Source: an uncultured Prevotellaceae bacterium (lineage in GTDB: Bacteria; Bacteroidota; Bacteroidia; Bacteroidales; UBA3663). From it: DNA of 60,593 nt. The notes beneath the pieces are model-generated. The model saw nothing but the letters and a program-made list of their open reading frames with translations. It was not told the origin of the DNA and made no database searches. Position numbers and translations under genes: made by a program. Within the stretch, counting starts at the first letter, position 1. Each line of letters opens with the position of its first letter. Below are positions 23,738 to 45,265 of the stretch, piece by piece. The stretch is taken from positions 1 to 60,593 of the forward strand of contig CAZGZL010000001.1 of the NCBI GenBank assembly GCA_964530595.1, written 5' to 3'.

Positions 23738-25093
23738 TTAGCCGATCTTCACCCCTTCGAACATCAGCGATGGGATGAATCCGGTGGCTGTCTGTCGTTG
23801 CTCACTGCCCACCTCGACGAGATGCTTCCATAGGTCGATGAGGTGTCCCGTCATGTTCATTTCGCTGACGGCAGCCACCGCTTCGCCCTGTTCGTAGAGT
23901 TGCCCCTCGATACCAAAGGAATAGTCGCCCGTCACCTCGTTGTAGTTGCCTCCGTTGAAGCCGGTGAGGAGCAATACGCGCGGTTGGCTGCGTAGCATCT
24001 CCTGCATAGAGCGGGCACCGGGAGTCATGCAGAGTACGGTGGGACCGCTGAAAGTGGGCGTCGTCTGGAGCTTGTGCGCGTAATAAGTATCGAAAAAATA
24101 GGTGCAGAGCACTCCGTCGCGGAAGATGTCGCGCGTCGCCGTGGCAACCCCTTCGAAGTCGAAGAGGCAGGCTCCCTGTGCACCGTAACGCTGTGGCTCG
24201 TCGGTCAGGGTGAGTAATGGCGAGGCGACCACCTCGCCCAAGCGGTCGGCAAGGAATGAACGCTTCTGATAGAGGGCGGCACCGAAAAGTACGTCGATCA
24301 GCGGATCGAGGAGCTTACCCACGACGCGCGGCTCAATGACGATGGTGTAATGTCCTGCCTCGATGCGATGTTGCCCTACTTTGCGCTCTGCACGCCGATA
24401 AGCACTGTCCGCCAAGCTCTGCGGCAGTTCCTCCATCAGCTGATGTAGCTCGCCGTAGCCCACCGCGGTGCGGTGCTCGTAGTCCGACGGACGGCAATCG
24501 CCCTCGCCCTGTAGGTTGACCGAGGCAACCAACGAACAGATGCCGGCGCGGCTTTCGCCGTGAAAGCCTTGGCTGTCCGAGAGGTATTGCCAACCGATGC
24601 GGTCTTGGAGCGCCGTGTCGAGGGTGATGATGCGCGGATCGTTCACGGTGAGCGCTTGGGCAGTCTGCAACGCCAAATCGCGCTTGGCATCTGCCGTGGT
24701 GCTGAGGATAGAGGTGTCGTAGTTGCCCAAGTCGGGAACACTATCCGCTGTTGTGTTGCGATAGTAACGTGCAGGATCCGGCAAGGTGCGACACAGGTCG
24801 GGCGACAAGCAACGGGTGATCGAGACCCCCTGACGGATCAGCTGTTCTATTTCCAAGGCGTCTAAGCGGTTGGTGGAGTAGGTGCCGTAGCGTCCATCGA
24901 CAAAGAGACGCAACGTCATGCCGACGCCGGTGCTCTGTTGCAAGGTGTCGACGTGCCGATTGTGGGTGTCGATGTTAAAGTGCTCTATGTAGTTCATCTC
25001 GGCGCGTGCGGCTGTGCAGCCTTGACGGAGTGCATACTCCACAACGTGGTCGGTCAGCGTGATGTATCGGGAGGCTTGTTCGGGTGTCAACAT
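23738..25093 (-). CDS. TldD/PmbA-family protein, PmbA/TldE type (no HExxxH)
   Basis: 451 aa from the ATG at 25093, with family-typical blocks (GMTLRLFVDGRYGTYSTN; FDFEGVAT; GGNYNEVTGDYSFGIEGQLYEQGE). I found no HExxxH zinc motif anywhere in the translation. The promoter box at 25126-25133 rules out the longer track ORF. Confidence 0.8.
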   Translation of the reverse strand: MLTPEQASRYITLTDHVVEYALRQGCTAARAEMNYIEHFNIDTHNRHVDTLQQSTGVGMTLRLFVDGRYGTYSTNRLDALEIEQLIRQGVSITRCLSPDLCRTLPDPARYYRNTTADSVPDLGNYDTSILSTTADAKRDLALQTAQALTVNDPRIITLDTALQDRIGWQYLSDSQGFHGESRAGICSLVASVNLQGEGDCRPSDYEHRTAVGYGELHQLMEELPQSLADSAYRRAERKVGQHRIEAGHYTIVIEPRVVGKLLDPLIDVLFGAALYQKRSFLADRLGEVVASPLLTLTDEPQRYGAQGACLFDFEGVATATRDIFRDGVLCTYFFDTYYAHKLQTTPTFSGPTVLCMTPGARSMQEMLRSQPRVLLLTGFNGGNYNEVTGDYSFGIEGQLYEQGEAVAAVSEMNMTGHLIDLWKHLVEVGSEQRQTATGFIPSLMFEGVKIG

Positions 25094-25125
25094 ATATAAT
25101 AATGTGTAGTTTTCCGTTGATGCCG

Positions 25126-25133
25126 CAAAGATA
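25126..25133 (-). promoter_or_regulatory. candidate -7 box for PmbA/TldE gene (TATCTTTG on minus strand)
   Basis: CAAAGATA on the plus strand lies 33 nt upstream of the ATG at 25093. Confidence 0.4.
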
Positions 25134-25393
25134 GTACATTCCTGCGATTCCGTTCCCTTTTGCAGCGGGAAACAGCCGGATGGAGGGGATAAGTTGTCGC
25201 GTTCCGCACGTCGCTCAAAGAAAAAGATCTTGGACTTGGATTCATTGACTGAAATGGTTATATTAAAAATCAAAAGTCAACGAATCTTGAATATTTGATT
25301 GCAATTAGCTTGAATTTATGCAAAAATGCAAACATTTTGATTTTTCGCGATAGATTTTTAGGGCAAAATAGTACGTCGTTTTAGGTTCTTTTA

Positions 25394-25401: not shown

Positions 25402-25560
25402 CAACGTGTAATTAAGAAAAACAGCTCGATTAAGTACAAAATGAAAGCAATCCCAGCCGAAACTGAGCTCTTTAGAGCGTCAAATCGTCATCCGTAGATT
25501 GCTTTCGGATTTCAGAACAAAAACAGCTTGAATGTCCCGAATAATATTATTATTTATAAT

Positions 25561-28500
25561 ATGAGAAGAAGAATCTACTTGTTATTTCTGTCGTTGTGTG
25601 CCTTCACGGTAATGGTGGCACAGAATACGATCAATGTATCCGGCGTGGTACGCGACGATCAGGGCGAAGGCATCATCGGTGCCACCGTCAGCGTCGTAGC
25701 GCAGGGAGTAAGTAAAGGCGCTATCACGGACGGCTCCGGGCAGTTCTTGTTGATGGATGTCCAACCCGCCGCACTGCTGCGCGTCTCTTATGTGGGCATG
25801 GAAAGTGTGGAAGTGAAAGCTAAACCGCGTTTGGAGATCGTCCTGAAGTCAAATGACGAACTTTTGGACGAAGTGATCGTCACCGCCTTCGGTACCGCTA
25901 AGAAATCTTCGTTTACCGGTTCCGCCGCCGTTGTGGGTAGCGCTAAGATCGAGCAGAAACAGCTGACAAACGTCATGCAGAGCTTGGTCGGCGAGGTTCC
26001 CGGTCTGCAGATCAATCCTTCGACGGCACCCGGTTCTACGCAGTCTATGACGATCCGAGGAACGGGAAGTATCTTCGCTGACTCCGACCCGTTGATTATT
26101 TTGGACGGTATGCCTTACGATGGTGGCTGGAATAACATCAATCCTCAGGATGTAGAATCAATTACTGTGTTGAAAGATGCAGCTTCGAACGCCCTCTATG
26201 GTGCGCGTGGCGCCAATGGTGTGATCATCATCACCACCAAGAAAGGCGACGCTGGTCGCGCTGTGGTGACGGTGGACGCCAAGTGGGGCGTGAACCAACG
26301 CTCTGTGCCGGACTACGACCGCGTTACCAATGTGGGCGAATACTACGAAATGTACTACAAGGCGCTTTATAATTATTATACGAGTAACGGAAACTCCGCT
26401 TCGACAGCGCACCGCCGCGCAAACGAGACTATGTTCGCTTCCAGCTCGGAAGGCGGCTTGGGCTACAATGTTTATAGCGTCCCGGACAATGAATACTTGA
26501 TCGGTACTAATGGAAAGTTGAATCCCAATGCAACGCTCGGTCGCCGTGTCTATCGCGATGGCAAGACCTATCTTTTGACGCCGGATGATTGGAGTGACGA
26601 GACCTATCGCACCGGTTCGCGTGAGGAATACAATGTAAATATCTCCGGCGGCAATAGTCAGTCTACCGTATATGGCTCGTTCGGCTATTTGAACGACGAA
26701 GGTATCGTGGCAGCCTCTTCGTATGAGCGTTACAGCGCTCGCTTGCGTGCTTCTTATCAAGTGAAGAAGTGGCTCCAGTTTGGCGGCAATATGAGCTATA
26801 TTCGTTCGAATACCAATCAGGTAGCTGCTGACGGTAGCTCTGATAGCGACGGTCAAACGATCGACAGCAATGTCTTCTCGTTCGCTGCGAACATGGCGCC
26901 GATTTATCCCCTTTATGTGCGCGATGGCAACGGAAACATCGTTACCGATAGCAACGGCAAGGTATATGATTGGGGTAACGGCAAATACAACGATTTGGAT
27001 GCTTCCGGACAGATGCTTGCACGTCCTTATGGCGCAAACACCAACTTGATTAACTCTCTCTACATCGAATCGAATAAACATATCGACAACTCATTGAATG
27101 CCGATGGTTATGTGGATGTCTCATTCCTTAAAGACTTCAAATTCACCTTCAAGGCCGGTACTTCGGTGTGGGAAAGTAAGTACACATATCAGAACAACCC
27201 TTACTACGGCTATTACAGCGACGGCGGCGGTGTTTTGACCAAACAGCAGAACCGGACAACGACTCTGAACATGCAGGAGTTGTTAAACTGGAGCCATAGT
27301 TACGGCAAGAACAATCTGACGGCGTTGATCGGTCATGAGAATTATACTTATCGTTACGAGACGCTGCAAGCTTCCAAGCGCGGAGCAACAGACTACTTCG
27401 GTAATCAAGAACTGAACGGTTATTTGACCTATCCCGATGCTCCCTCTTCTTACGCAACCGACTACAATACGGAGGGCTACTTTTTCCGCGCAACTTACGA
27501 TTATGACACCCGCTACTTTGCGCAGGCTTCATTCCGTCGCGATGCTTCCTCTCGCTTCCATCCGGACAACCGTTGGGGTAATTTCTGGTCGCTCGGCGGT
27601 GCTTGGCTGTTGAGCAAGGAAGATTGGTTCAATATTGCCAACGTGAACTCCTTGAAGTTGAAGGCCTCTTACGGAGAGCAGGGAAATGATAAAATCGGTA
27701 ACTACCGTTACATGGATCTCTACAAAATCAGTAACGTGGACGGACAGCTCTCTCTGACCCTCTATCAGAAAGGCAACAAAGACATCACTTGGGAGACCGG
27801 TCGCAACTTCAACGTCGGCGTCGAGTGGGAGATGTACCGCGGTCGCTTGAGTGGTGGCGTAGACTACTATAACCGCACCACCAATGATATGCTCTTGTGG
27901 TTTAGCACGCCGAGCTCTTTGGGTTACGATGGCTATTACAAGAACGTCGGCGATATGCGAAACCGTGGTGTCGAAGTCACATTGGCGGGGACACCCATCC
28001 GCACACGTCATATCGACTGGAGTTTGAATTTTAACTTGACTTACAACAATCAGTCCGTTACTTATTTGCCCGACGAGAACAAAACCACAATGGTGGACGG
28101 TTATAAGGGCTTCATCAATGGTACCTATTATTATGTAGGTGAAGATTTGCCGCTCAATAGCTGGTACATTGCTAAGTATGCCGGCGTTTCTGCTGATGGA
28201 CGTTCGCAGTGGTATTACACCGACAGCGAGGGCAAACAGCAGGTAACGACCAATTATGAAAACGCCACTAAATATATCATCAAAGCCGAGCAGCCTGTCT
28301 ACGGTGGATTCGGTTCGGCGTTGAATCTCTATGGCGTGGACATCAACGTTCAATTTACCTACCAGTTGGGCGGAAAAGGTCTTGACACAGAGTATGCGCG
28401 CTTGATGACCAATCCCGTGGTCAGCCAGACCGGTTATGCCATCCACAAAGATATGTTGAACGCTTGGTCAGCCGAAAATACAGACTCAAATATTCCTCGT

Positions 28501-28770
28501 TGGCAATTCGGGGACGAGAATGCCGGTGCTATCTCAGATCGCTTCTTGATCAAGAATAGTTATTTAGCTTTGCAGAATGTACAGGTCGGCTATACGTTGC
28601 CGCAACGCCTTTATAGCGCAATCGGCATCAGCAAGCTGCGTCTTTACGCCAGCGGCGACAATATTTATTTGTGGTCGAAGCGCAAAGGCTACGACCCGCG
28701 TATCTCAGCCGGCTATGGCGTTTACTCGCCGATGCGTACCATTTCGGGCGGTATCAACATTCAGTTCTAA
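25561..28770 (+). CDS. SusC/RagA-family TonB-dependent outer-membrane transporter
   Basis: A signal peptide is followed by a CarboxypepD_reg-like domain (INVSGVVRDDQGEGIIGATVSV), a TonB box/plug (DEVIVTAFGTAKKSSFTGS, ITVLKDAASNALYGARGANGVIIITTK) and a ~800-aa barrel ending in ...GGINIQF. There is no N-terminal STN/anti-sigma signalling domain. Confidence 0.95.
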   Translation: MRRRIYLLFLSLCAFTVMVAQNTINVSGVVRDDQGEGIIGATVSVVAQGVSKGAITDGSGQFLLMDVQPAALLRVSYVGMESVEVKAKPRLEIVLKSNDELLDEVIVTAFGTAKKSSFTGSAAVVGSAKIEQKQLTNVMQSLVGEVPGLQINPSTAPGSTQSMTIRGTGSIFADSDPLIILDGMPYDGGWNNINPQDVESITVLKDAASNALYGARGANGVIIITTKKGDAGRAVVTVDAKWGVNQRSVPDYDRVTNVGEYYEMYYKALYNYYTSNGNSASTAHRRANETMFASSSEGGLGYNVYSVPDNEYLIGTNGKLNPNATLGRRVYRDGKTYLLTPDDWSDETYRTGSREEYNVNISGGNSQSTVYGSFGYLNDEGIVAASSYERYSARLRASYQVKKWLQFGGNMSYIRSNTNQVAADGSSDSDGQTIDSNVFSFAANMAPIYPLYVRDGNGNIVTDSNGKVYDWGNGKYNDLDASGQMLARPYGANTNLINSLYIESNKHIDNSLNADGYVDVSFLKDFKFTFKAGTSVWESKYTYQNNPYYGYYSDGGGVLTKQQNRTTTLNMQELLNWSHSYGKNNLTALIGHENYTYRYETLQASKRGATDYFGNQELNGYLTYPDAPSSYATDYNTEGYFFRATYDYDTRYFAQASFRRDASSRFHPDNRWGNFWSLGGAWLLSKEDWFNIANVNSLKLKASYGEQGNDKIGNYRYMDLYKISNVDGQLSLTLYQKGNKDITWETGRNFNVGVEWEMYRGRLSGGVDYYNRTTNDMLLWFSTPSSLGYDGYYKNVGDMRNRGVEVTLAGTPIRTRHIDWSLNFNLTYNNQSVTYLPDENKTTMVDGYKGFINGTYYYVGEDLPLNSWYIAKYAGVSADGRSQWYYTDSEGKQQVTTNYENATKYIIKAEQPVYGGFGSALNLYGVDINVQFTYQLGGKGLDTEYARLMTNPVVSQTGYAIHKDMLNAWSAENTDSNIPRWQFGDENAGAISDRFLIKNSYLALQNVQVGYTLPQRLYSAIGISKLRLYASGDNIYLWSKRKGYDPRISAGYGVYSPMRTISGGINIQF

Positions 28771-28787
28771 CAATCATATAGGAAACA

Positions 28788-30539
28788 ATGAAAAAGCAAT
28801 TATATAAGACATTCGCATTTGTTCTGATGACTACTGGCTCGTTGACTGCTTGTATCGACGAGACGTTGCCGGAATCAGGCTATTTGGCTTACGAACAGAT
28901 TGAAGGTTTGACGTCTACGCAAGCCGGCTACGCTCGCGCCATTGCCGGTTATCTCGGACAGCCAGAATCTTGCTACGACACAGAATATGACATCGGCTAT
29001 CCCGGTCTCGGTCTGATTCGTGACCTTTATTGCGAAGACTTGAGCACTAATTCTCTTGGCTACGAGTATTTCTACTATTGGGCTGCCAATAGCTACCTCG
29101 GCTCTGATTATCCGACCGCATTCCTACCGTGGAAGTATTATTATAAGTGGATCGCCAACACGTCGAATATTTTGCGCGGAACGGAGAACGATGACAACAA
29201 AGCATACTTTGGTATCGCACATTTCTACCGTGCATGGGCTTATTTCGATTTAGCACGTCTGTATGAGTATCGTAACACCGGCATTGCTTCTCTCGATCAG
29301 GCAGCCGCTGCCAACGGTATCTATGGGTTGACGGTGCCGATTCTTTCGGATGAACCGACCGACGCGGAGGCTTTCAATACCCCGCGTGTGAAATATTACA
29401 CGATGTATCGCTTCCTACTCGACGAATTAGAGGCAGCGGAGCGGGAATTGGCTGACTACACTCGTTCAGCTAAAAATATGCCGAACATTGCCGTAGTCTA
29501 TGGTTTGAAGGCGCGTGTCTATTTGGAAATGGCAACTCGCTACGAATTTGCTCCTGAAGACTTGACCGAGACGCTTCAGTCCGGCGTCGATTTGGGTTTC
29601 ACTACCCAAGAGGAGGCGTATGCTTTGGCAGCCGAATATGCACGCAAAGCCATCAACGAGAGCGGTGCTACGCCGCTCAGCGAGTCTGAATGGTATGGTG
29701 GCAGCAATTACACCGATGGCTTCAACAACGTCAACACCAACGCTTGGATGTTGGGTATCATCATCAACAAGGAGCTCTTGAGTGCCTCCTCATGGCGTAA
29801 CTTTATCGGGTACATTTCTCCCGAACAATGCTTTGGTGTAGCGGGCATTTCCTACAACGAAGACGCTAAAAAATACGTCAACACGTACGGAGCGCAGCGT
29901 TTGATCAGCACCCGACTCTATGACAAGATCAGTGACAAAGACTGGCGTAAACAGACGTGGATCGCTCCTGAAGACGCGGGTTTGGCGCCCGGCACGAAAT
30001 ATAAGACGATTGCCGACGATGATCACTTTGTCCAGATTCCTGCCTACAGCGGATTGAAATTCCGCCCCAAGGAGGGCAATAAGACCGACTTCAGTGTCGG
30101 CGCAGCAGCAGACTATCCGTTGATGCGTGTCGAGGAGATGTACTTCATCGAAGCCGAAGCTAAGGCGGGCAGTGAAGGCGTCGAGGCGGGTATGGCTGTC
30201 CTTTCGAGCTTCTTGAACACGTATCGTTATCGTGACAACGGCTACACGACTACCGCTTCGAATATCGAGCAATTCCGTGAGGAGTTGATGGTTCAGAAAC
30301 GTATCGAGTTCTGGGGCGAGGGTTTGATATTCTGGGACTACAAGCGTCTCTTGATGAACGTGACGCGCGGCTATAGTGGTACTAATTTCCCCACATACTA
30401 CCGTTTGAACTCGGTTGTTGGATATTATGTAGCGCCGTGGTTCAATGCCTTCATCCCGCAAAGCGAGTATGAGAAAAACTCTGCGATGTTGCCCAATCCC
30501 GATCCGTCGGCTACCATTTCTGCATGGGAAGAGAATTGA
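28788..30539 (+). CDS. SusD/RagB-family nutrient-binding outer-membrane lipoprotein
   Basis: Lipobox LTAC followed by IDETL. It has TPR-like helical SusD hallmarks (AHFYRAWAYFDLARLY; GLKARVYLEM; RVEEMYFIEAEA; QKRIEFWGEGLIFWDYKR) and starts 17 nt after susC. Confidence 0.95.
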   Translation: MKKQLYKTFAFVLMTTGSLTACIDETLPESGYLAYEQIEGLTSTQAGYARAIAGYLGQPESCYDTEYDIGYPGLGLIRDLYCEDLSTNSLGYEYFYYWAANSYLGSDYPTAFLPWKYYYKWIANTSNILRGTENDDNKAYFGIAHFYRAWAYFDLARLYEYRNTGIASLDQAAAANGIYGLTVPILSDEPTDAEAFNTPRVKYYTMYRFLLDELEAAERELADYTRSAKNMPNIAVVYGLKARVYLEMATRYEFAPEDLTETLQSGVDLGFTTQEEAYALAAEYARKAINESGATPLSESEWYGGSNYTDGFNNVNTNAWMLGIIINKELLSASSWRNFIGYISPEQCFGVAGISYNEDAKKYVNTYGAQRLISTRLYDKISDKDWRKQTWIAPEDAGLAPGTKYKTIADDDHFVQIPAYSGLKFRPKEGNKTDFSVGAAADYPLMRVEEMYFIEAEAKAGSEGVEAGMAVLSSFLNTYRYRDNGYTTTASNIEQFREELMVQKRIEFWGEGLIFWDYKRLLMNVTRGYSGTNFPTYYRLNSVVGYYVAPWFNAFIPQSEYEKNSAMLPNPDPSATISAWEEN

Positions 30540-30588: not shown

Positions 30589-31503
30589 ATGAAAACAAGA
30601 GATATGATTTGGGGGCTTGGCGGCGTGTTGGGCGCGTGCTTGCTCTGCACCGCCTGCGATGATGACGACAACGCATGGCAACCCGGCCCGGTGGTCGGTG
30701 ACGGTCATCAGAACATCGTCTATTTCGTGGGTTCTGCCCCTTCGACCACTGAATTGAGAACAGATGTTACGACAGACTATGCCATCACAGTGGCTCGTAT
30801 GGATTCCACAGAGGCGATCTCTGTGCCTCTCGTCGCACAAGGTAGCGATGCTTTCGAAGTCCCGGAGACCATCGAATTTCCCGCAGGCGTAGGGACGACA
30901 CAGTTCAACGTCCACTTCAAAGGAGCCCCCAAAAGTGGTACCTTCAGCTTGGCGTTGAGCATCGAAGACATTCGTTATAACAATCCCTACACTTCCCTCA
31001 CGACACAGCTCGAATTTTCGCAGGATGTAGCCAAATGGGTGCTTGTCGCCTCTAACGTACGCTTCTCGGAATACTATGGACAGATGGCCTCTTTCGAATG
31101 CGATCTCTATCAGCGCGAGGGAGAAAACATCTATCGTTTTGTTGACTTCGGTGAGGGTTATGATCTCACATTCGTGGCAGATTCGATTCCAGCTACCGAC
31201 GAGAATGCATATTTCGGTAATTACATTCATCCGACGGGTGGTTACACCGGATCTTTCTATGGAAGCGATGCATGGTACTTTGCCTCAGAACCGGACGCTG
31301 CGTATAATATAAAGTTGCGCAATGCCGAAGGTCGCTCCATTGACTATTCTGTTTTGTATCTGAATACCTCGTACACAACCATTAGTTTCGATACTAAATC
31401 CGGTTGGATCAATGGCTATTTCTATCAGTACGATGCAGATTATGTTTTCGAGACCTCTTATTATGCTTTCCTTTATTTCGAATGGGATGACCCTGCAGAG
31501 TAA
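30589..31503 (+). CDS. surface lipoprotein of unknown function (N-terminal Ig-like region plus aromatic-rich C-terminal domain, copy A)
   Basis: Signal peptide with LCTAC followed by DDDDN (acidic surface-export-like signal). The C-terminal ~155 aa is paralogous to ORF 33749-34354. I recognise no named family. Confidence 0.75.
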   Translation: MKTRDMIWGLGGVLGACLLCTACDDDDNAWQPGPVVGDGHQNIVYFVGSAPSTTELRTDVTTDYAITVARMDSTEAISVPLVAQGSDAFEVPETIEFPAGVGTTQFNVHFKGAPKSGTFSLALSIEDIRYNNPYTSLTTQLEFSQDVAKWVLVASNVRFSEYYGQMASFECDLYQREGENIYRFVDFGEGYDLTFVADSIPATDENAYFGNYIHPTGGYTGSFYGSDAWYFASEPDAAYNIKLRNAEGRSIDYSVLYLNTSYTTISFDTKSGWINGYFYQYDADYVFETSYYAFLYFEWDDPAE

Positions 31504-31528
31504 TAGCAAATCATGAATTAAAGTAACT

Positions 31529-33061
31529 ATGGAAAGAATATCAAACATTCGCACCTACGCTGCCGTCGGATTCATGGCGGTCTCAGCGTTGACACTCTGC
31601 ACGGCGTGTGACAATGACGATGATGTTGTCAAGGAGCAATTAGCCTCGCCGGAGATCACATTGGTCGATTCCACCGCCACAAGTCTGACTTTCTCGTGGA
31701 GCTCGGTAGATCTGGCATACCAATACGAATATGAACTTCGTGATAGTCGCGAGGTGCTGGTCGAAGGCAATTTGACTGACAAAAACAGCGTAACGATCGA
31801 GGGATTGAACCCTGAAACCGAATATACACTCAGTGTGGTAGCTTACGCACAAGATGTTCGTTACTACTTAGCTTCGGAGGCTGCTACCCTCAGTGCCAAG
31901 ACCGATGTCGCACCGATTGTCGCTTCCGAACTCTGGCGTGCCGAAGGAACCTTCACGAGTACCGATCTCGGTGACTCTTGGACGGCTACCCTCGTGGCAT
32001 ACGACGACAATCACTACGAATTGCTCTCTTGGTACGGCGTAGAAGGTTACAACTTACAATTCTACGTGACGGCAGACGGTGGGCTCGATTTGTCGAATTA
32101 CGAGAGCTCTTACGGCTACTATTACGTTCCCACGGGACGTAGCGATTACGAGCAAGCCGCACTCTACGTCGCTGACGGCTACTCCGGCTTTAGCGGTGAC
32201 GAGACGAAGGGAAATATCTATGTTTGGGATTACCTCGCAGCCGGTGGTTATGATCAGTTTACGTGGGGCACCACCAACGAACCTGAAACGCCCGGTGATA
32301 CCGATCGTACAGCCCTCTGGAGTGCTGATGGAACGTACACTTGTGCCGTTTTAGCCACGTCTTGGAAGGCTACACTCACTGCTTACAGCGACGGCAGCTA
32401 CACCCTCGCATCGTGGTTCGGCGTAGAAGGTTATGACTTCACTTTCTCCCTGACTGCCGATTCTGTATTGACCGCCAACTATTCGTTGGACGAGTTCCAA
32501 TATTATTGTGTGCCAACCGGTCGTACCGATTATCCGACAGCTTATCTCTACTTCGAGAACCAGTGCTCACGTTTTACAGGCGATGCAACGCAGGGCGTGT
32601 TCTTCCTCTATGACTATCTGACACAAGGAGGCTACGACACGTTTACTTGGAGTGCTTCGGCATCCTCGAACACCTCTTCATTGACTTTAGCCTCCCTTGT
32701 AGGTAGCTATTCAGAGCATACCACCGGCTATTGGAACGCCACATGCGACTATACGTGCGACGTAACCCTCGCCATCGAAGACGAAGCTACGCAGAGCGTT
32801 AGCCTCAACGGATTCTCCGGTTCAGCCACACCGTTGGTTGGTACAGTCGATTTGGAGGCACGCACCATCACCTTCGCGCCGAATCAGGATTTTGCCTCTT
32901 ACTATCTCTTCTCAGCTGAAGCAGATCAGTACACCTCTGTTATCGCCACGATTGCAGATGACGGCACCATCACGCTCAAAGATTGGGGCGCTTGGTATCC
33001 TTGGCAGGGCGTTTACTACACGTATGCCTATGGCATGGTTTCTGTCTTGACAAAACAATGA
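31529..33061 (+). CDS. surface lipoprotein of unknown function (FN3-like domain plus two tandem aromatic-rich repeats plus a third related domain)
   Basis: LCTAC followed by DNDDD. The FN3-like segment is PEITLVDSTATSLTFSWSSV...YEYEL...GLNPETEYTLSVVAY (aa ~40-125). Tandem ~113-aa repeats occupy aa 134-247 and 262-374. Confidence 0.75.
   Translation: MERISNIRTYAAVGFMAVSALTLCTACDNDDDVVKEQLASPEITLVDSTATSLTFSWSSVDLAYQYEYELRDSREVLVEGNLTDKNSVTIEGLNPETEYTLSVVAYAQDVRYYLASEAATLSAKTDVAPIVASELWRAEGTFTSTDLGDSWTATLVAYDDNHYELLSWYGVEGYNLQFYVTADGGLDLSNYESSYGYYYVPTGRSDYEQAALYVADGYSGFSGDETKGNIYVWDYLAAGGYDQFTWGTTNEPETPGDTDRTALWSADGTYTCAVLATSWKATLTAYSDGSYTLASWFGVEGYDFTFSLTADSVLTANYSLDEFQYYCVPTGRTDYPTAYLYFENQCSRFTGDATQGVFFLYDYLTQGGYDTFTWSASASSNTSSLTLASLVGSYSEHTTGYWNATCDYTCDVTLAIEDEATQSVSLNGFSGSATPLVGTVDLEARTITFAPNQDFASYYLFSAEADQYTSVIATIADDGTITLKDWGAWYPWQGVYYTYAYGMVSVLTKQ
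31928..32650 (+). repeat. intragenic tandem duplication encoding two ~113-aa domain copies
   Basis: Copy 1 (31928-32269) reads ELWRAEGTFTSTDLGDSWTATLVAYDDNHYELLSWYGVEGYNLQFYVTADG...YYYVPTGRSDYEQAALY...FSGDETKGNIYVWDYLAAGGYDQFTWG. Copy 2 (32312-32650) reads ALWSADGTYTCAVLATSWKATLTAYSDGSYTLASWFGVEGYDFTFSLTAD...YYCVPTGRTDYPTAYLY...FTGDATQGVFFLYDYLTQGGYDTFTW. Confidence 0.85.
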
Positions 33062-33068
33062 GAAAAAT

Positions 33069-33102
33069 TGAGTGAATGGTCTCCGATGAGATCATTCACT
33101 CA
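33069..33102 (+). terminator. rho-independent terminator ending the susC-susD-lipoprotein operon
   Basis: A 15-bp stem (TGAGTGAATGGTCTC / GAGATCATTCACTCA, one G-T pair) with loop CGAT is followed by TCCCTTTT. It begins 8 nt after the stop at 33061. Confidence 0.75.
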
Positions 33103-33257
33103 TCCCTTTTCGCCATAAAACACCCCTTTTCGCCTAACTATTATAACCACACCTTATAGAACTATTGAGATCCTAACTCTTGACTGAAAAAAGAAACATT
33201 TGTTGCTTCTGATTCGATCATTCTATATAAGTTTAACTCCTTAATATTACAGTAAAA

Positions 33258-33752
33258 ATGAGCAAGAAAATTCCGATTTTTTTGACCGCTCTACTCTTGT
33301 TGCTGTCGCCTGCACATCGGGCAGTTGCCGACACGGTAGAGAATCAGGTCTTGGTCGAATTTGCTTCGGGTGAAGTCATTACCTTCGCCATCGAACAAGC
33401 GCCCAAGATCACCTACACGGAACAAGACGTTACCGTGACGTATGCTGGGGACACCCTCACGTATGCGATGTCCGCCATCAAAAAACTCACCTTAGGTGAT
33501 GCTTCCGCCTCCGGTATCGAAGGCATTGTCTCGTCCCGTCCTTTGGGTACGATCACGTGTACCGATGGTGCCTTCCACTTCGCCGGATTCCCGCAAGGCA
33601 GTCTGGTGCGCCTTTTCAACCTGAACGGGCAGCTCGTACAGAGCTACACGCTCAACGGCGAGGAAACCAACGACGCCTCCATTTCGGCATTGTCTGCCGG
33701 CACTTATGTTTTAACAGTCAAGGGTATTACTTATAAATTCAACAAACGATGA
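33258..33752 (+). CDS. small secreted protein with T9SS type-A C-terminal sorting domain
   Basis: 164 aa: signal peptide, a ~75-aa N-terminal module and a CTD-like tail (GAFHFAGFPQGSLVRLFNLNGQLVQSYTLNGEE...LSAGTYVLTVKGITYKFNKR). Its stop overlaps the next start (ATGA at 33749-33752). Confidence 0.75.
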   Translation: MSKKIPIFLTALLLLLSPAHRAVADTVENQVLVEFASGEVITFAIEQAPKITYTEQDVTVTYAGDTLTYAMSAIKKLTLGDASASGIEGIVSSRPLGTITCTDGAFHFAGFPQGSLVRLFNLNGQLVQSYTLNGEETNDASISALSAGTYVLTVKGITYKFNKR

Positions 33753-34354
33753 AAAAAATATTTTCTGTATTGGCAGCTTGCCTGCTGACCATTGCCGCCT
33801 CCGCTCAAACCATGAACGTACACCTCAAAGACGGTAGCACAGTCTCTTATACCTCCACAGACGTTGATTACGTCGACTTCACTGCTGCCGATCCTACGGC
33901 ATTGGGTGCAGAGTGGAAATTGATCGCTTCCGATGTGCAGTTCACCGAGTATTATAATAGCCTTCCGGGCTTTACAGCCGACCTCTATTGTAACGCCGAT
34001 AGCACAGAATATTGCTTCCGTAACTTCGCTACGGGCTACAACCTCTACTTCACCGTGACTCCCGTCGAGGGCACTAACAGCTATTTAGGAAATTATATCT
34101 ATCCCGTAGGTGGCTCAACTTATGGAGACTATTCCTATTTCGGTCCAGATACGTGGAATAGTAGCTTCCCGCTGTATTGGCAGAATTGGGAGGGGCATTA
34201 TGCAGACGGTTCTGCTGTCTATACCAACACCACTTATACGACCATCAATTTCGATGATAAGTACGGTTGGTTGTGTCTCTATATACAATCTTATACAGAT
34301 GCCGGCGAATACGAGAAAGAGATTTGGGCTTATCTGCAATTTAGCTGGAAATAA
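33749..34354 (+). CDS. secreted protein of unknown function (aromatic-rich domain, copy B; paralog of the C-terminus of 30589-31503)
   Basis: 201 aa with a signal peptide (cleavage likely after ASA). Residues ~45-201 align along their whole length with copy A. Examples: EWKLIASDVQFTEYY vs KWVLVASNVRFSEYY; GNYIYPVGG vs GNYIHPTGG; YTNTTYTTINFDDKYGW vs YLNTSYTTISFDTKSGW. Confidence 0.75.
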   Translation: MKKIFSVLAACLLTIAASAQTMNVHLKDGSTVSYTSTDVDYVDFTAADPTALGAEWKLIASDVQFTEYYNSLPGFTADLYCNADSTEYCFRNFATGYNLYFTVTPVEGTNSYLGNYIYPVGGSTYGDYSYFGPDTWNSSFPLYWQNWEGHYADGSAVYTNTTYTTINFDDKYGWLCLYIQSYTDAGEYEKEIWAYLQFSWK

Positions 34355-34377: not shown

Positions 34378-34418
34378 ATCACGGCTCGACTGCGAAACGT
34401 TTGCAGTCGAGCCGTGAT
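34378..34418. terminator. bidirectional terminator between convergent genes
   Basis: A perfect 16-bp stem (ATCACGGCTCGACTGC / GCAGTCGAGCCGTGAT) is followed by CTTTTTGTG on the plus strand and a T-rich stretch on the minus strand. It lies between the stops at 34354 and 34444. Confidence 0.75.
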
Positions 34419-34443: not shown

Positions 34444-36891
34444 TTATTGCACCACCACTTTGCGGCGATCAATGATGTAAATGCCGCGTGGCAACTGATA
34501 GCCTACGGGGGTATTCTGACGCTGCTGAACGCCGATCAGTCGTCCGGTCAGATCGTAGATTTCTACCTGATCCGAAGCATGGTCGATGCGAACATCCTCG
34601 ATGCCGGTAGCGGCAAGCACATTGACAGCTACTCGGTTTTGTACGCCTGCATTTATCGACGGCATTGCGTAGTTACCGCTCTTCAGATAAGAGACCTTGC
34701 CGTAGTATGTGGTCTGTGCATTCAGATTCTGCAATGTACCGGAGATGTAGATCGTATCGGTCGCTCCGGCAGCCACCTCGCATTCCTGTTCGAAGGTCAA
34801 CAACGCTGTTTGTGCCGTCGTCGTGCGGAAGAACTGAACACGGAATGTGCCGACATATCTGTCGCCGGTATTCTTCACCACGGCGGCAATGGTCAATTCC
34901 GTACCCAATTCGCGTGTAGATTCAGAAGTGATCCACGGCGTGCTCAAAAGCGTGAATGCAGCATTGGTGGTCAGATCTTCCTGCACCTCGAAGGTGGTGC
35001 GGCTGGTAGCGATCGTTACCATTGATGTGCTGACGTTCTGATGAGCATATTGCAAACTTGCGCCCCATGTTCCCGACATACTCAATGTGCAGTCGAAGGA
35101 GAGCTGCTTGGTCTCGCCCGCCTTCAGCGTTGTGGGAAGGCTCTGCGTGATCTTCTCGCTCACCTCGTCCGGATTGGTCAGTGCGAGGGCAAAGCTACCT
35201 ACCACCGTTTCTGTGCCGGTGTTGGTTACATCCACGGTGATTGTCGTGGCGGTATTAGCGCTCACTGTATTGTTCTCGAAGCTCCAGTTGGCTGCTGTCA
35301 GCGGCTGATCGGTGCTCTTGCTGATGGTAACGCTTGTGCCGCTCACCGTCATATCCAAATAGCTATGTGCCGAAGCCGTATAACGCAACGTCGCAATGCT
35401 GTCGTTGTCCGATGGGTGATAATAAGTATAAATACGATAGGAGCCTTCTGCCAAATCGGAGGGCAGGGTGATCTGCCCACTGATGTTCGAGCCAATGATG
35501 CTTGTTCCCGATGCAGCAATGGTCAGCGTACCCAACGGACACAATATGCGGTTGGCGTCGTCGGCTGGGTTCTGAGTCTCGGAATCGGTTGGCACAATCA
35601 TAGCGCCTACAGCACCGTTCACGGCGAACGGAGAGTAATTAAACAAGCTCTTCAATACCAAATTGACGCGACCGCCTAAAGTGGTCTTCTTGGTCGAGCT
35701 GGTGATGCTCTCGCCGGCAATGGGGGCGAAGTAGCGACCGTAATGCTGTTGCGGCGTTAGCTGCAACACGGCAGACTGTTCCGAACTGTAGCCGTTGGAT
35801 GCTGTCGCACCTGTGCCAACTCCCAACGGATTGAGAATGCAGACATCATAGTAGCCATTATATTGTCCCGACCAGCCCCAGTTGACGTGATAATAGCCTT
35901 CACTGCTATAGCCGTCCAAAATGAAAGCGTGTCCACCTGTCGAGGCAAGACCGGAGTAGAGGATCGGGCGATTCTCTTGGAGCTCGTTATAGAGCAGCGC
36001 GTTCCACTCATCGTAGCTATAGTAGCTGCGATACTGGAGCGTTGTCAGCTCATTGTAGCCGAAGTAGTCGATCAGCGCCTTCAGATAATAAGGAGCCGTC
36101 GAACCACTCTGATCAGCCGCATACGACATATTTAGTGCCACGCCGCAATGAAAACTCAGCTTAGCTACCTCATCGCGTTGTGCTTGGGTCTCGGAGCCGG
36201 TATATTGTTCCAACATCAGATCCCAATCGTAGGTCTGGTCGGCGAAGTTGACGCTGACGGTATTTCCGGCGGTGGTATAAGAATTGATGCCTTGACCGTG
36301 TTCCGGGTACTTGTGGTGGCGCATCACCTGTGCCAATGCTGTTGCCATGCAGCCCGTAGGATATTGATTGGGGCAACGGTTGCTGTACGGATCATTTTGA
36401 TCCCACTGAATATTATTCAGCGGCGCGATGGGGGCGTAGGAGGGCGCTTCAGCCGACAGTGCCGCTTCGGGGTGTGCCTCCACGTAGGTCACAGATTCAG
36501 CCAAGTGGGTCAGCCAGCTTTCCAAGTTGTCCGGTAGTGCCTCGTCCGAGAAAGTCTGGTCGTCGGAATAACCCAAGATCGGGCGCATCAAATCTGTGCC
36601 TGAGACGATGACGAAACCGCCCTCCTCACGATTGAAGATATAATACGGAGCGTCCGCCGTCGCGCGGGTTTCGCCCATCAGCCGACTGAGACGAACACTG
36701 TGAAATGGGGTGAGGCGGAATGCAGCGGCGCGTTGCTCCTTGCGTGACAAGAAGTTTTGTGCCAAGGTCTCAGCCTCGGAGGCACTGCGGGGCAGCGCTT
36801 CGGCGGTAGTGGCCATGCTGCCACCCACCAAGAGGAGTCCCAAGAGGTGCGTGCGGTGTTCCCGTAGAAATGTGTAGACGTTGTTTAGCAT
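34444..36891 (-). CDS. C10-family (streptopain/PrtT-like) cysteine peptidase with propeptide, Ig-like repeats and T9SS C-terminal domain
   Basis: Propeptide/inhibitor-like N-terminus (SEAETLAQNFLSRK...PYYIFNREEGGFVIVSGTDLMRPILGYSD). The catalytic Cys is in the context QYPTGCMATALAQVMRHHKYP and the catalytic His in STGGHAFILDGY, followed by NWGWSGQYNGYY. The C-terminal sorting domain reads VEIYDLTGRLIGVQ...LPRGIYIIDRRKVVVQ. I prefer the ATG at 36891 because the track start at 36918 (TTG) lies inside the promoter box. Confidence 0.88.
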   Translation of the reverse strand: MLNNVYTFLREHRTHLLGLLLVGGSMATTAEALPRSASEAETLAQNFLSRKEQRAAAFRLTPFHSVRLSRLMGETRATADAPYYIFNREEGGFVIVSGTDLMRPILGYSDDQTFSDEALPDNLESWLTHLAESVTYVEAHPEAALSAEAPSYAPIAPLNNIQWDQNDPYSNRCPNQYPTGCMATALAQVMRHHKYPEHGQGINSYTTAGNTVSVNFADQTYDWDLMLEQYTGSETQAQRDEVAKLSFHCGVALNMSYAADQSGSTAPYYLKALIDYFGYNELTTLQYRSYYSYDEWNALLYNELQENRPILYSGLASTGGHAFILDGYSSEGYYHVNWGWSGQYNGYYDVCILNPLGVGTGATASNGYSSEQSAVLQLTPQQHYGRYFAPIAGESITSSTKKTTLGGRVNLVLKSLFNYSPFAVNGAVGAMIVPTDSETQNPADDANRILCPLGTLTIAASGTSIIGSNISGQITLPSDLAEGSYRIYTYYHPSDNDSIATLRYTASAHSYLDMTVSGTSVTISKSTDQPLTAANWSFENNTVSANTATTITVDVTNTGTETVVGSFALALTNPDEVSEKITQSLPTTLKAGETKQLSFDCTLSMSGTWGASLQYAHQNVSTSMVTIATSRTTFEVQEDLTTNAAFTLLSTPWITSESTRELGTELTIAAVVKNTGDRYVGTFRVQFFRTTTAQTALLTFEQECEVAAGATDTIYISGTLQNLNAQTTYYGKVSYLKSGNYAMPSINAGVQNRVAVNVLAATGIEDVRIDHASDQVEIYDLTGRLIGVQQRQNTPVGYQLPRGIYIIDRRKVVVQ

Positions 36892-36915
36892 ATACAAATT
36901 TGTAGATAGTTTGCG

Positions 36916-36923
36916 CAAATATA
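36916..36923 (-). promoter_or_regulatory. candidate -7 box for the C10 peptidase gene (TATATTTG on minus strand)
   Basis: CAAATATA on the plus strand lies 25 nt upstream of the ATG at 36891. The extended match TATATTTGCGC is shared with the promoters at 39621 and 39726. Confidence 0.4.
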
Positions 36924-44242: not shown

Positions 44243-45265
44243 ATGATCAAATTTCGCACTGAAATAGAAAAGGTACTATCGGAACATCCTTTGGATTGCT
44301 CCGATAGTATTTTGATTTTAGGCTCTTGCTTTGCGGATCATATCGGGCGTTGGCTTCGAAGCTATTATTTAGACGTCACGTGCAATCCTTTCGGTACCCT
44401 CTACAATCCAGAGAGCATTGCCCTGACGCTGCAAAACTTGCTGACCGGACGACGTTATGATCCGGAACGGGACTTGGCTGAAGGCACGTTGGCGTACAGT
44501 GAGACGGAAGGTCGCTATTTTAGCTTCGAGCACCACGGCTCTCTCTCCGCCGAGACTCCGGAGGCGTTGTGTGACCTACTGAACAGAACCACCGAAGAGG
44601 CGGGTGCTGCATTGGCGCGCAGTCGCCATCTGTGGCTCACGTGGGGCACCGCATGGGTCTACGAACGTTCCGAGAATCATCGTGTGGTAGCCAACTGTCA
44701 CAAATTCCCACCTGCATGCTTCGAACACCGTCGGCTGGCGGTAGGGGAGATCGTAGAACGGTGGAGTAAGTTACTCGCACGGTTGCCGCATCTGCACGTT
44801 GTTTGCACGGTGAGTCCCATCCGTTATGTCAAAGAGACACTGCACGGCAATCAGCTGAGTAAGTCCATCCTCCTCTTAGCTTCGGAGGAGCTTGCGCGTC
44901 GGTTCCCCGACCGCGTAGAATATCTACCCATCTACGAACTTTTGATGGACGATCTGCGGGACTATCGTTTTTACGCCGCGGATTTGGTGCATCCTTCCGA
45001 TGTTGCGGTCGAAGTGGTGCGGCAATACGTCGCCGAAACGCTGCTTTCGCCGCGTTGTCGTAATTACATCGCCGAAGTCACCCCGCTCATTAAAGCGCTC
45101 GAACATCGCCCCATTCATCCCGAAAGCGAAGCGTATCACCGTTTTATCGTCCAAAATTCGTTAAAAACTGAAACTCTTAGAGAGAAATACTCTATCTTTA
45201 CGCTCGGAGAATTATACCAGAAATTTCAAGAGCGACTTTCATCACAACATGGCATATCACTATAA
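44243..45265 (+). CDS. GSCFA-domain protein (SGNH-like, function unknown)
   Basis: The eponymous motif ILILGSCFADHIG lies near the N-terminus, with HPS near the C-terminal third (LVHPSDVAV). Confidence 0.75.
   Translation: MIKFRTEIEKVLSEHPLDCSDSILILGSCFADHIGRWLRSYYLDVTCNPFGTLYNPESIALTLQNLLTGRRYDPERDLAEGTLAYSETEGRYFSFEHHGSLSAETPEALCDLLNRTTEEAGAALARSRHLWLTWGTAWVYERSENHRVVANCHKFPPACFEHRRLAVGEIVERWSKLLARLPHLHVVCTVSPIRYVKETLHGNQLSKSILLLASEELARRFPDRVEYLPIYELLMDDLRDYRFYAADLVHPSDVAVEVVRQYVAETLLSPRCRNYIAEVTPLIKALEHRPIHPESEAYHRFIVQNSLKTETLREKYSIFTLGELYQKFQERLSSQHGISL

Follow-up and report, generated by a model that had tools for sequence, protein, structure and literature searches.

Introduction

Gut Bacteroidota capture nutrients mainly through SusC/SusD (SusCD) systems. 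To our knowledge, almost all of those that have been characterised target glycans, and the known or suspected importers of peptides or proteins are few: RagAB, BT2261-64 and ButCD. RagAB of Porphyromonas gingivalis and BT2261-2264 of Bacteroides thetaiotaomicron are SusC/SusD transporters thought to take up peptides from surface or secreted cysteine proteases, and the latter reportedly consists of a SusC-SusD pair with two small accessory lipoproteins, crystallised with bound peptide by Glenwright et al. in 2017. We describe here a cassette of four genes, encoding SusC, SusD and two further proteins designated ORF A and ORF B (ORF, open reading frame), from an uncultured Prevotellaceae bacterium (GenBank assembly GCA_964530595.1, contig CAZGZL010000001.1). 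The whole stretch of DNA that was analysed, positions 1 to 60,593, is called the window, and all coordinates without a locus name refer to it. A and B are very probably surface lipoproteins associated with SusCD and composed of domains of a new family, which a nearby protein, ORF D, shares. The module type of ORFs A and D is designated T1, the type repeated in ORF B is designated T2, and the C-terminal domain of ORF B (aa 381-510; aa, amino acids) is designated T3. Accessory surface lipoproteins of SusCD systems are a known kind of protein; what is new is the unannotated domain family and its unusual, recurrent coupling to C10 peptidases.

Several other described systems resemble this locus in part; in function, the nearest analogues are the TbpB/LbpB-type bipartite receptors, the SusE/SusF-type proteins, RagAB with gingipains and the four-component BT2261-64 complex. 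SusE/SusF-type surface glycan-binding proteins (SGBPs) are encoded directly after susD and are modular, all-beta lipoproteins with an export signal and variable repeats. TbpB, LbpB and the Slam-dependent lipoproteins of Neisseria and Pasteurellaceae (9pa8_B, 4o4x_B; 7jrd_A; PmSLP 9b3h_B; fHbp) are N-terminally lipidated surface proteins with tandem small beta-barrel lobes and an adjacent TonB-dependent transporter; in the TbpB/LbpB type a lobe comprises a handle domain and an 8-stranded barrel, and the protein and its transporter together capture a host protein. Calycins, lipocalins and nitrobindin are up-and-down antiparallel all-beta proteins of about 8-10 strands. The C10 peptidases of Bacteroides are lipoproteins accompanied by small inhibitors, the staphostatin-like Bfi and Bti; these beta-rich proteins are exported or lipidated, are predicted to resemble lipocalins and are encoded beside the peptidase genes (PMC2873492, PMC3462683). 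Where a SusCD locus encodes peptidases only, a role in the import of peptides or proteins has been proposed (PMC11467351).

Results

A conserved cassette of SusC, SusD and two lipoproteins

The first gene of the cassette (25528..28770, plus strand) encodes a SusC/RagA-type TonB-dependent transporter of 1080 aa, with a match to TIGR04056 (E=5.7e-220) and to the plug and barrel domains of Pfam. It is followed on the same strand by a SusD/RagB-type lipoprotein of 583 aa (28788..30539; Pfam SusD-like_3, E=2.4e-10, and SusD_RagB, E=1.1e-9), by ORF A of 304 aa (30589..31503) and by ORF B of 510 aa (31529..33061). Directly 3' of ORF B, a consensus scan alone marks a terminator-like hairpin with a 15-bp stem and a T-rich tail (33069..33102, plus strand), which is likely the end of a SusC-SusD-A-B operon. 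With hairpins of this kind after both ORF B and ORF D, the four genes look like one operon and the two genes beyond, ORF C and ORF D, like a second unit, described below.

A pattern scan of one genome per species yielded 24 related loci, all from metagenome-assembled genomes of Bacteroidales: Duncaniella, Muribaculum, Sangeribacter, other Muribaculaceae, Bacteroides, Prevotella, Odoribacter and Cryptobacteroides. The gene order SusC-SusD-A-like-B-like is present in more than 20 of the 24, and the position after susD, first noticed in the window by a model that read the sequence without database searches (the sequence-only reading), is conserved with it. The SusC proteins of these loci are 43-49% identical to that of the window and the SusD proteins 36-42%, except in L023 and L024, where the values fall to 30-32% and 24-27%. 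Apart from the peptidase genes described below, the flanking genes are variable housekeeping genes. The A-like proteins have a lipobox, an acidic run, an N-terminal domain and a T1-type C-terminal domain in common; in 14 loci, tblastn matches to ORF A start near aa 30 and reach aa 195 or beyond. A hidden Markov model (HMM) of T1 recognizes the A-like proteins of L003, L005, L006, L007 and L012 with E-values of 1e-5 to 1e-8, and those of L026 and L027 with E=2e-35 and 2e-25.

Among solved structures, the closest relatives of the window SusC are RagA (6sli_B, 346 bits, E=3.9e-102) and the SusC homolog 8aa4_A (338 bits); BT2264 (5fq6_B) is also among those matched. None of the solved SusC homologues is recognisable by name as a chain of the ButCD study, but none besides these first two exceeds 268 bits, so close orthology to a solved ButC appears unlikely. 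The RagAB locus differs in having no lipoproteins of the A or B type, and the similarity to RagA is barely above that to a glycan SusC.

Both ORF A and ORF B begin with a signal peptide and lipobox (30589..30657, with lipidated Cys23, and 31529..31609, with lipidated Cys27, respectively), as read from the sequence. The lipoboxes both end in LCTAC and are followed directly by acidic runs, DDDDN in A and DNDDD in B, of the type of the acidic lipoprotein export signal (LES), S(D/E)3, of Bacteroides surface lipoproteins (PMC6222051). The near identity of these signals had been pointed out from the sequence, and BLASTP aligns the two signal regions with 60% identity over 15 aa. A C-S/D-D-D-D pattern is found in the A-like proteins of 18 loci, and 157 of 198 homologues have a lipobox-like N-terminus.

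T1 and T2 form one domain family

ORF A consists of an N-terminal domain (aa 24-139; 30658..31005), which recurs in all A-like proteins and matches nothing in Pfam or the PDB, and a T1 module (aa 140-304; 31006..31500). ORF D (33749..34354, plus strand; 201 aa) has its T1 module at aa 45-201 (33881..34351). In a BLASTP alignment, residues 148-299 of ORF A and 54-200 of ORF D show 39% identity and 55% positives (E=2e-24). ORF B carries a fibronectin type III (fn3) domain (aa 33-128; 31625..31912), supported by a Pfam match over aa 43-109 (PF00041, E=6.9e-8) and by fibronectin matches in the PDB, then T2 copy a (aa 129-250; 31913..32278), T2 copy b (aa 257-378; 32297..32662) and T3 (32669..33058). 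The T2 copies are 50% identical over 114 aa (E=3e-37). The coordinates of A, B and D, the A/D alignment and the tandem pair in B had all been given correctly by the sequence-only reading; the motif blocks that it quoted for A and D are present with small deviations, such as AFLYFEW in ORF A where ORF D has AYLQFSW.

That reading had also proposed a core shared between the A/D module and the repeats of B. By BLASTP, no significant link exists between A or D and B (E=0.18-0.5), so profile methods are needed to connect T1 with T2. With four T1 sequences, hhalign put the probability of a relationship at 88.6% (E=2.6e-6); with 11 it rose to 94.2% (E=1.1e-7), and with 22 T1 and 260 T2 instances to 95.2% (E=2.8e-8), over 118 columns and the full length of the module. 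In a MAFFT alignment the two types are collinear, T1 corresponding to T2 with three insertions. The T1 HMM cross-matches the T2 region of the B-like protein L026_B (E=2e-5), and intermediates occur in nature, such as homologue P0052, which is fn3-T2-T1. A further homologue, P0021, is T1-T3. The proposed core is thus lost in pairwise alignment and recovered in profile-profile alignment, and on the latter evidence T1 and T2 are to be viewed as one domain family common to A, B and D.

The possible fifth copy, at about aa 385-510 of ORF B, has fared less simply. T3 is a genuine and widespread C-terminal domain, confidently folded in the predicted structure; it was found in 35 of the first homologues, later in about 110, and in 134 instances overall, and the T3 of ORF B shares 76% identity with the C-terminal end of P0021, in which a T1 module precedes it. 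Its homology to T2 is only suggestive at the sequence level (hhalign probability of only 34%, E=4e-4). The predicted strand order matches that of T2: after two long strands come a short one, a 3-10 turn and six or seven further strands.

The residues Phe, Trp and Tyr make up 20-24% of T1 and T2, compared with about 9.5% of neighbouring domains, which confirms the aromatic part of the earlier description of the modules as rich in Tyr, Trp and Gly. The aromatic motifs AYDDGSY and WYGVEGYDL are strongly conserved among members that are about 25-50% identical.

The modules match no named family

Searches of Pfam (2025 copy) and NCBIfam (2026) found no match in A or D and only fn3 in B. Individual Pfam scans of 33 B-like and 18 A-like members revealed no consistent family, and sequence searches of the PDB (phmmer and hmmsearch, with A, B, D, a T2 profile and an A-like profile) found only fibronectin, for the fn3 part; apart from fn3, neither A nor B matches any PDB chain, the chains of 5fq6 included. 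Every name carried by homologues in their source records is "hypothetical protein". The modules therefore remain unassigned, as they had been on first reading, and the T1/T2 modules appear to constitute a previously unnamed family of aromatic-rich all-beta domains.

AlphaFold2 (AF2) models were built with homologue alignments. The model of ORF B aa 125-510 has a mean predicted local distance difference test (pLDDT) score of 90.7 and consists of three all-beta domains, each of about 10 strands, with linkers of low confidence between them; the T2 copies score mostly above 90, and T3 scores above 90. The model of mature ORF D has a mean pLDDT of 88.8 and a predicted TM-score of 0.77. In Foldseek searches of the PDB, the best matches of the B model are TbpB, LbpB and TbpA-TbpB complexes (E from 1.3e-4 to 3e-3 and probability up to 0.98; 0.94-0.98 for those with E from 1.3e-4 to 7.7e-4), with TM-scores of only 0.15-0.22, 8-10% identity and a root-mean-square deviation of 16-18 A; nitrobindin also appears, with probability 0.93 and TM(target) 0.40. 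The single-domain T1 model of ORF D found nothing better than E=0.14 or probability 0.38. Its weak matches include a DUF1842 8-stranded barrel, Pasteurella PmSLP, lipocalins, fHbp and HphA, surface lipoproteins of the Slam-dependent type recurring among them. The top match, 8t1m, is the DUF1842 barrel, from Burkholderia, and is uninformative since its function is unknown. A Foldseek search against viral structures gave nothing meaningful. The sequence-only reading had named a Foldseek probability above 0.9 to an already characterised binding module as grounds for abandoning a new family. The TbpB-type matches formally reach that level, but at TM-scores of about 0.2 and 8-10% identity, and the T1 model does not exceed 0.38.

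The modules would accordingly be compared with, rather than placed in, the small antiparallel beta-barrel class of surface lipoproteins and calycins, a likeness of predicted fold class and not of membership. TbpB and LbpB differ in sequence, searches of all PDB sequences bringing up neither of them at E<=10, in phylum, in their Slam export as opposed to the LES-dependent export here, and in their partner, TbpA in place of SusC/SusD. For calycins and lipocalins the scores are weak and inconsistent, no lipocalin signature motifs are present and Pfam membership is lacking: Calycin_like matches one of 33 members, weakly (E=0.03), and the Foldseek matches of T1 to lipocalins have probabilities of at most 0.13. 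Membership in each of the known families compared (TbpB, CBM/SusE/F, staphostatin/I69 and lipocalin; CBM, carbohydrate-binding module) fails on at least one defining feature that was tested.

Architectures and distribution of the family

An exhaustive HMM search of 1.84 billion protein representatives at E<=1e-3 found 224 clusters at 50% identity; the family is small and belongs to gut Bacteroidales. A word-indexed homologue search had returned only three and two proteins for T1 or ORF A, whereas tblastn and HMM searches of the related loci found T1 in the A-like gene of every cassette. T1 is too divergent for the word-indexed method, and the impression that it is nearly unique is false; it is not rare.

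Architectures were counted over 198 retrieved proteins. The most common is T2-T3 (81 proteins), followed by T2 alone (38), T2-T2-T3 (26), T2-T2 (20), T2-C10 (11), T1 alone (6), T2-T2-T2 (4) and T2-T2-T2-T2 (3). T1-T3, T2-T1, T1-T2, T3-T2-T2, T2-T3-T3 and T2-T2-T3-T3 occur once each, and three proteins contain no detected module. The number of T2 units per protein thus ranges from one to four and ORF D appears as a lineage-specific extra copy, which agrees with the local gene and domain amplification suggested at first reading. In the protein encoded by the fourth gene of the cassette, the C-terminal head is interchangeable across lineages, being T3, T1 or C10. Separately, the 495-aa homologue P0157 has a T-type module (aa 24-154) fused to a cyclophilin-type peptidyl-prolyl isomerase (PF00160, E=7.7e-28), a protein-directed enzyme.

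The variation of T2 copy number from one to four between orthologues, and the constant placement of T2 between fn3 and the C-terminal head, would also be expected if the modules were purely structural, a stalk or spacer like fn3 without any ligand, only the terminal head (T3 or C10) and SusD being functional. We hold this to be very unlikely, since A ends in a T1 module in every cassette, as D does, and since the conserved aromatic motifs exceed what a spacer usually needs, though these residues could belong to the core.

Recurrent association with peptidases

A Peptidase_C10 domain directly follows T2, in the arrangement fn3-T2-C10, in 13 of the first 52 B homologues, and such fusions account for the 11 T2-C10 proteins among the 198 classified. 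Two fusions were traced to their contigs, and both are the fourth gene of an orthologous cassette, with SusC 48% and SusD 36-39% identical to those of the window and with T1 matches in the A-like protein (E=2e-35 and 2e-25). The window itself encodes a C10 (streptopain-family) cysteine peptidase of 824 aa, convergent with the cassette (34444..36918, minus strand; PF01640, E=7e-63). It has an I69 propeptide (PF13734, E=3.8e-23), the C10 domain, a CARDB domain (E=2.1e-6) and a weak type IX secretion system (T9SS) C-terminal domain (Por_Secre_tail, E=0.045 and 0.002). In L002, L003, L005, L006 and L007, too, a separate C10 gene is convergent with the cassette. About ten loci have a C10 or M6 peptidase gene beside the cassette, an M6 metallopeptidase lying 5' of SusC in L017, L018, L019 and L022.

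Two of these neighbourhoods have further features. Directly upstream of SusC in L017, L018, L019 and L022, the M6 gene (immune inhibitor A-like, with fn3; L017 441-2564) is accompanied by a 139-aa lipoprotein-like ORF, an arrangement that recalls the ButCD locus of PMC11467351; L019 has in addition a convergent GH20 hexosaminidase. Beside the convergent C10 gene in L003 (5001-6281), L005 (5045-5959), L006 (4840-6057) and L007 (4838-6049), from Sangeribacter and Muribaculaceae, lies a gene for a T9SS cargo protein in which two T-like modules (T2 HMM, E down to 2e-8) stand between a signal peptide and a C-terminal sorting domain. With these proteins the module family reaches beyond lipoproteins to T9SS cargo.

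Proximity to C10 raises the question of whether the T modules regulate the protease, either by inhibition in the manner of a prodomain or staphostatin or by docking, and so keep C10 latent or tethered to the surface. In the fusions T2 ends about 10-20 residues before the C10 domain, the canonical position of an I69 propeptide; Bacteroides C10 peptidases have small companion inhibitors for which lipocalin-like and staphostatin-like character is predicted; the modules resemble small beta-barrels; and extra T-module proteins adjoin the C10 gene. We nevertheless consider such a role decidedly improbable. A C10 domain is missing from most members, including T2-T3, T2-T2-T3 and every A-like protein, and in many loci there is no C10 gene close by. 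The C10 peptidase of the window has its own I69 propeptide and is convergent, not co-transcribed. The modules differ from Bfi and Bti in being parts of large multidomain SusCD lipoproteins, mostly not beside C10. Membership in either known class was examined directly: sequence searches at E<=10 and the top 50 Foldseek matches contain no staphostatin chain, neither approach indicates similarity to I69, and in the fn3-T2-C10 fusions Pfam finds fn3 and Peptidase_C10, without PF13734 over the T2 region.

The same evidence bears on a more conventional account, in which the modules are a new CBM-like family of carbohydrate-binding domains, A and B are of the SusE/SusF type, and the cassette is an ordinary locus for glycans or the glycans of glycoproteins. 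This account is favoured by the position of A and B after susD, by their lipidation and export signals, by the very high Tyr and Trp content, by the GH20 gene adjacent to one related locus, and by the score of a glycan SusC nearly as high as that of RagA. Against it, A, B, D and about 50 homologues show no match to SusE/F, CBM, starch-binding Ig-type or other glycan-binding Pfam families. No carbohydrate-active enzyme (CAZyme) is conserved beside the cassette in 26 loci, the single GH20 being the only one in the flanks examined, and no conserved hybrid two-component system (HTCS) or extracytoplasmic function (ECF) regulator was seen beside it among the loci examined, for which annotation is partial. 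Of the elements in the strict definition of a polysaccharide utilization locus (susC/susD, CAZymes and a dedicated regulator), only the SusC/SusD pair is conserved in the loci examined, and the recurrent partners are peptidases. We regard this account as unlikely; the genomic context, with its peptidase fusions and neighbours and its near absence of CAZymes, speaks against glycans.

A likely second unit with a T9SS cargo and ORF D

The gap between ORF B and ORF C is 196 nt, and all six genes from SusC through ORF D are co-directional. ORF C (33258..33752, plus strand; 164 aa) begins with a signal peptide, continues with a short beta-rich part and ends in a T9SS type-A sorting domain (TIGR04183, E=1.1e-6; PF18962, E=1.6e-5); with about 70 beta-rich residues between signal peptide and sorting domain it is a very small T9SS cargo. 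Its stop overlaps the start of ORF D by 4 nt (ATGA), which couples the translation of the two. In ORF D, the region 33749..33880 comprises a signal peptide, with predicted cleavage at ASA|Q, and an N-terminal beta-hairpin predicted by AF2. The hairpin segment, TMNVHLKDGSTVSYTSTDVDYVDFT (aa 21-44; 33809-33880), has a pLDDT of about 76; it is kept in the D-type proteins P0021, P0054 and P0055 and is absent from ORFs A and B.

Of the three proteins first described together as secreted or at the surface, A and B have the lipobox and LES, while D has an ordinary signal peptide and no lipobox. Judged by these signals, ORF D is not a lipoprotein, and would belong to a separate transcription unit behind the terminator-like hairpin that follows ORF B. 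None of the 24 related loci has a counterpart of ORF C or ORF D, and D-type proteins occur only in a few metagenome contigs, so the C-D unit appears to be a lineage-specific addition. The gene for the D-type homologue P0054 lies at a contig end, and its context is uninformative.

Other features of the window

Between the convergent ORF D and C10 genes lies a strong hairpin with a perfect 19-bp stem containing 10 G-C pairs (34378..34418, strand not assigned), which is probably a bidirectional terminator. An Rfam scan of the window gave zero matches. A PmbA/TldD-family metallopeptidase gene (23738-25273, minus strand) is divergent from SusC; it is not kept beside the cassette in other loci and may be a coincidental housekeeping neighbour. 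Pfam assigns both a Mur ligase middle domain and a complete alanine racemase to one 834-aa ORF at 45249-47753 (plus strand).

Discussion

The reading that we favour, at a probability of roughly 55% for the model as a whole, is that A and B serve a SusCD system as accessory lipoproteins at the cell surface, and that this system probably takes up protein or peptide. Once lipidated, A and B would be directed to the surface by their acidic export signals. The fn3 domain and T2 units would form a stalk of variable length, a role indicated by the variable copy number of T2, and the stalk would present the interchangeable C-terminal head, whether T3, T1 or a C10 cysteine peptidase. These heads, together with the T1 module of ORF A, may capture cargo at the mouth of SusCD, where a fused or adjacent C10 or M6 peptidase could cut it. 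Because peptidase fusion and adjacency are recurrent and CAZymes are essentially absent, a protein, glycoprotein or peptide is a likelier cargo than free polysaccharide, and the most likely one. ORF D and the T9SS cargo ORF C would be a lineage-specific extra unit, which places one more T1 module beside a T9SS-secreted C10 peptidase.

Several points weigh against this reading. A capture or ligand-binding role for the modules is deduced only from their position and architecture. With scores so close for RagA and a glycan SusC, the sequence of the transporter is silent on the type of cargo. A high content of surface aromatic residues is typical of carbohydrate-binding modules also, which leaves room for a glycan or glycoprotein ligand, and the T2 units may serve as no more than spacers. 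In about half of the related loci, again with partial annotation, no peptidase lies within 10 kb.

A more far-reaching version of the favoured model is possible, though we hold it to be doubtful. The cassette would be a hitherto unrecognised "proteolytic utilisome" of gut Bacteroidales, in which the beta-barrel-like modules T1, T2 and T3, as TbpB-like lobes, seize a specific host or dietary protein or glycoprotein, C10, fused in the place of T3 or secreted next door by the T9SS, cuts it, and SusCD imports the peptides. Such a system, made from a new domain family, would have arisen in Bacteroidota by convergence with the neisserial TbpAB-type bipartite receptors.

The unannotated family, with about 224 clusters, could enter Pfam or InterPro. 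The cassette is a compact and tractable candidate of four genes, the fourth of which alternates between a binding-type head and a C10 protease, and with it the question of how protein is harvested at the surface of Muribaculaceae and related bacteria becomes directly testable.

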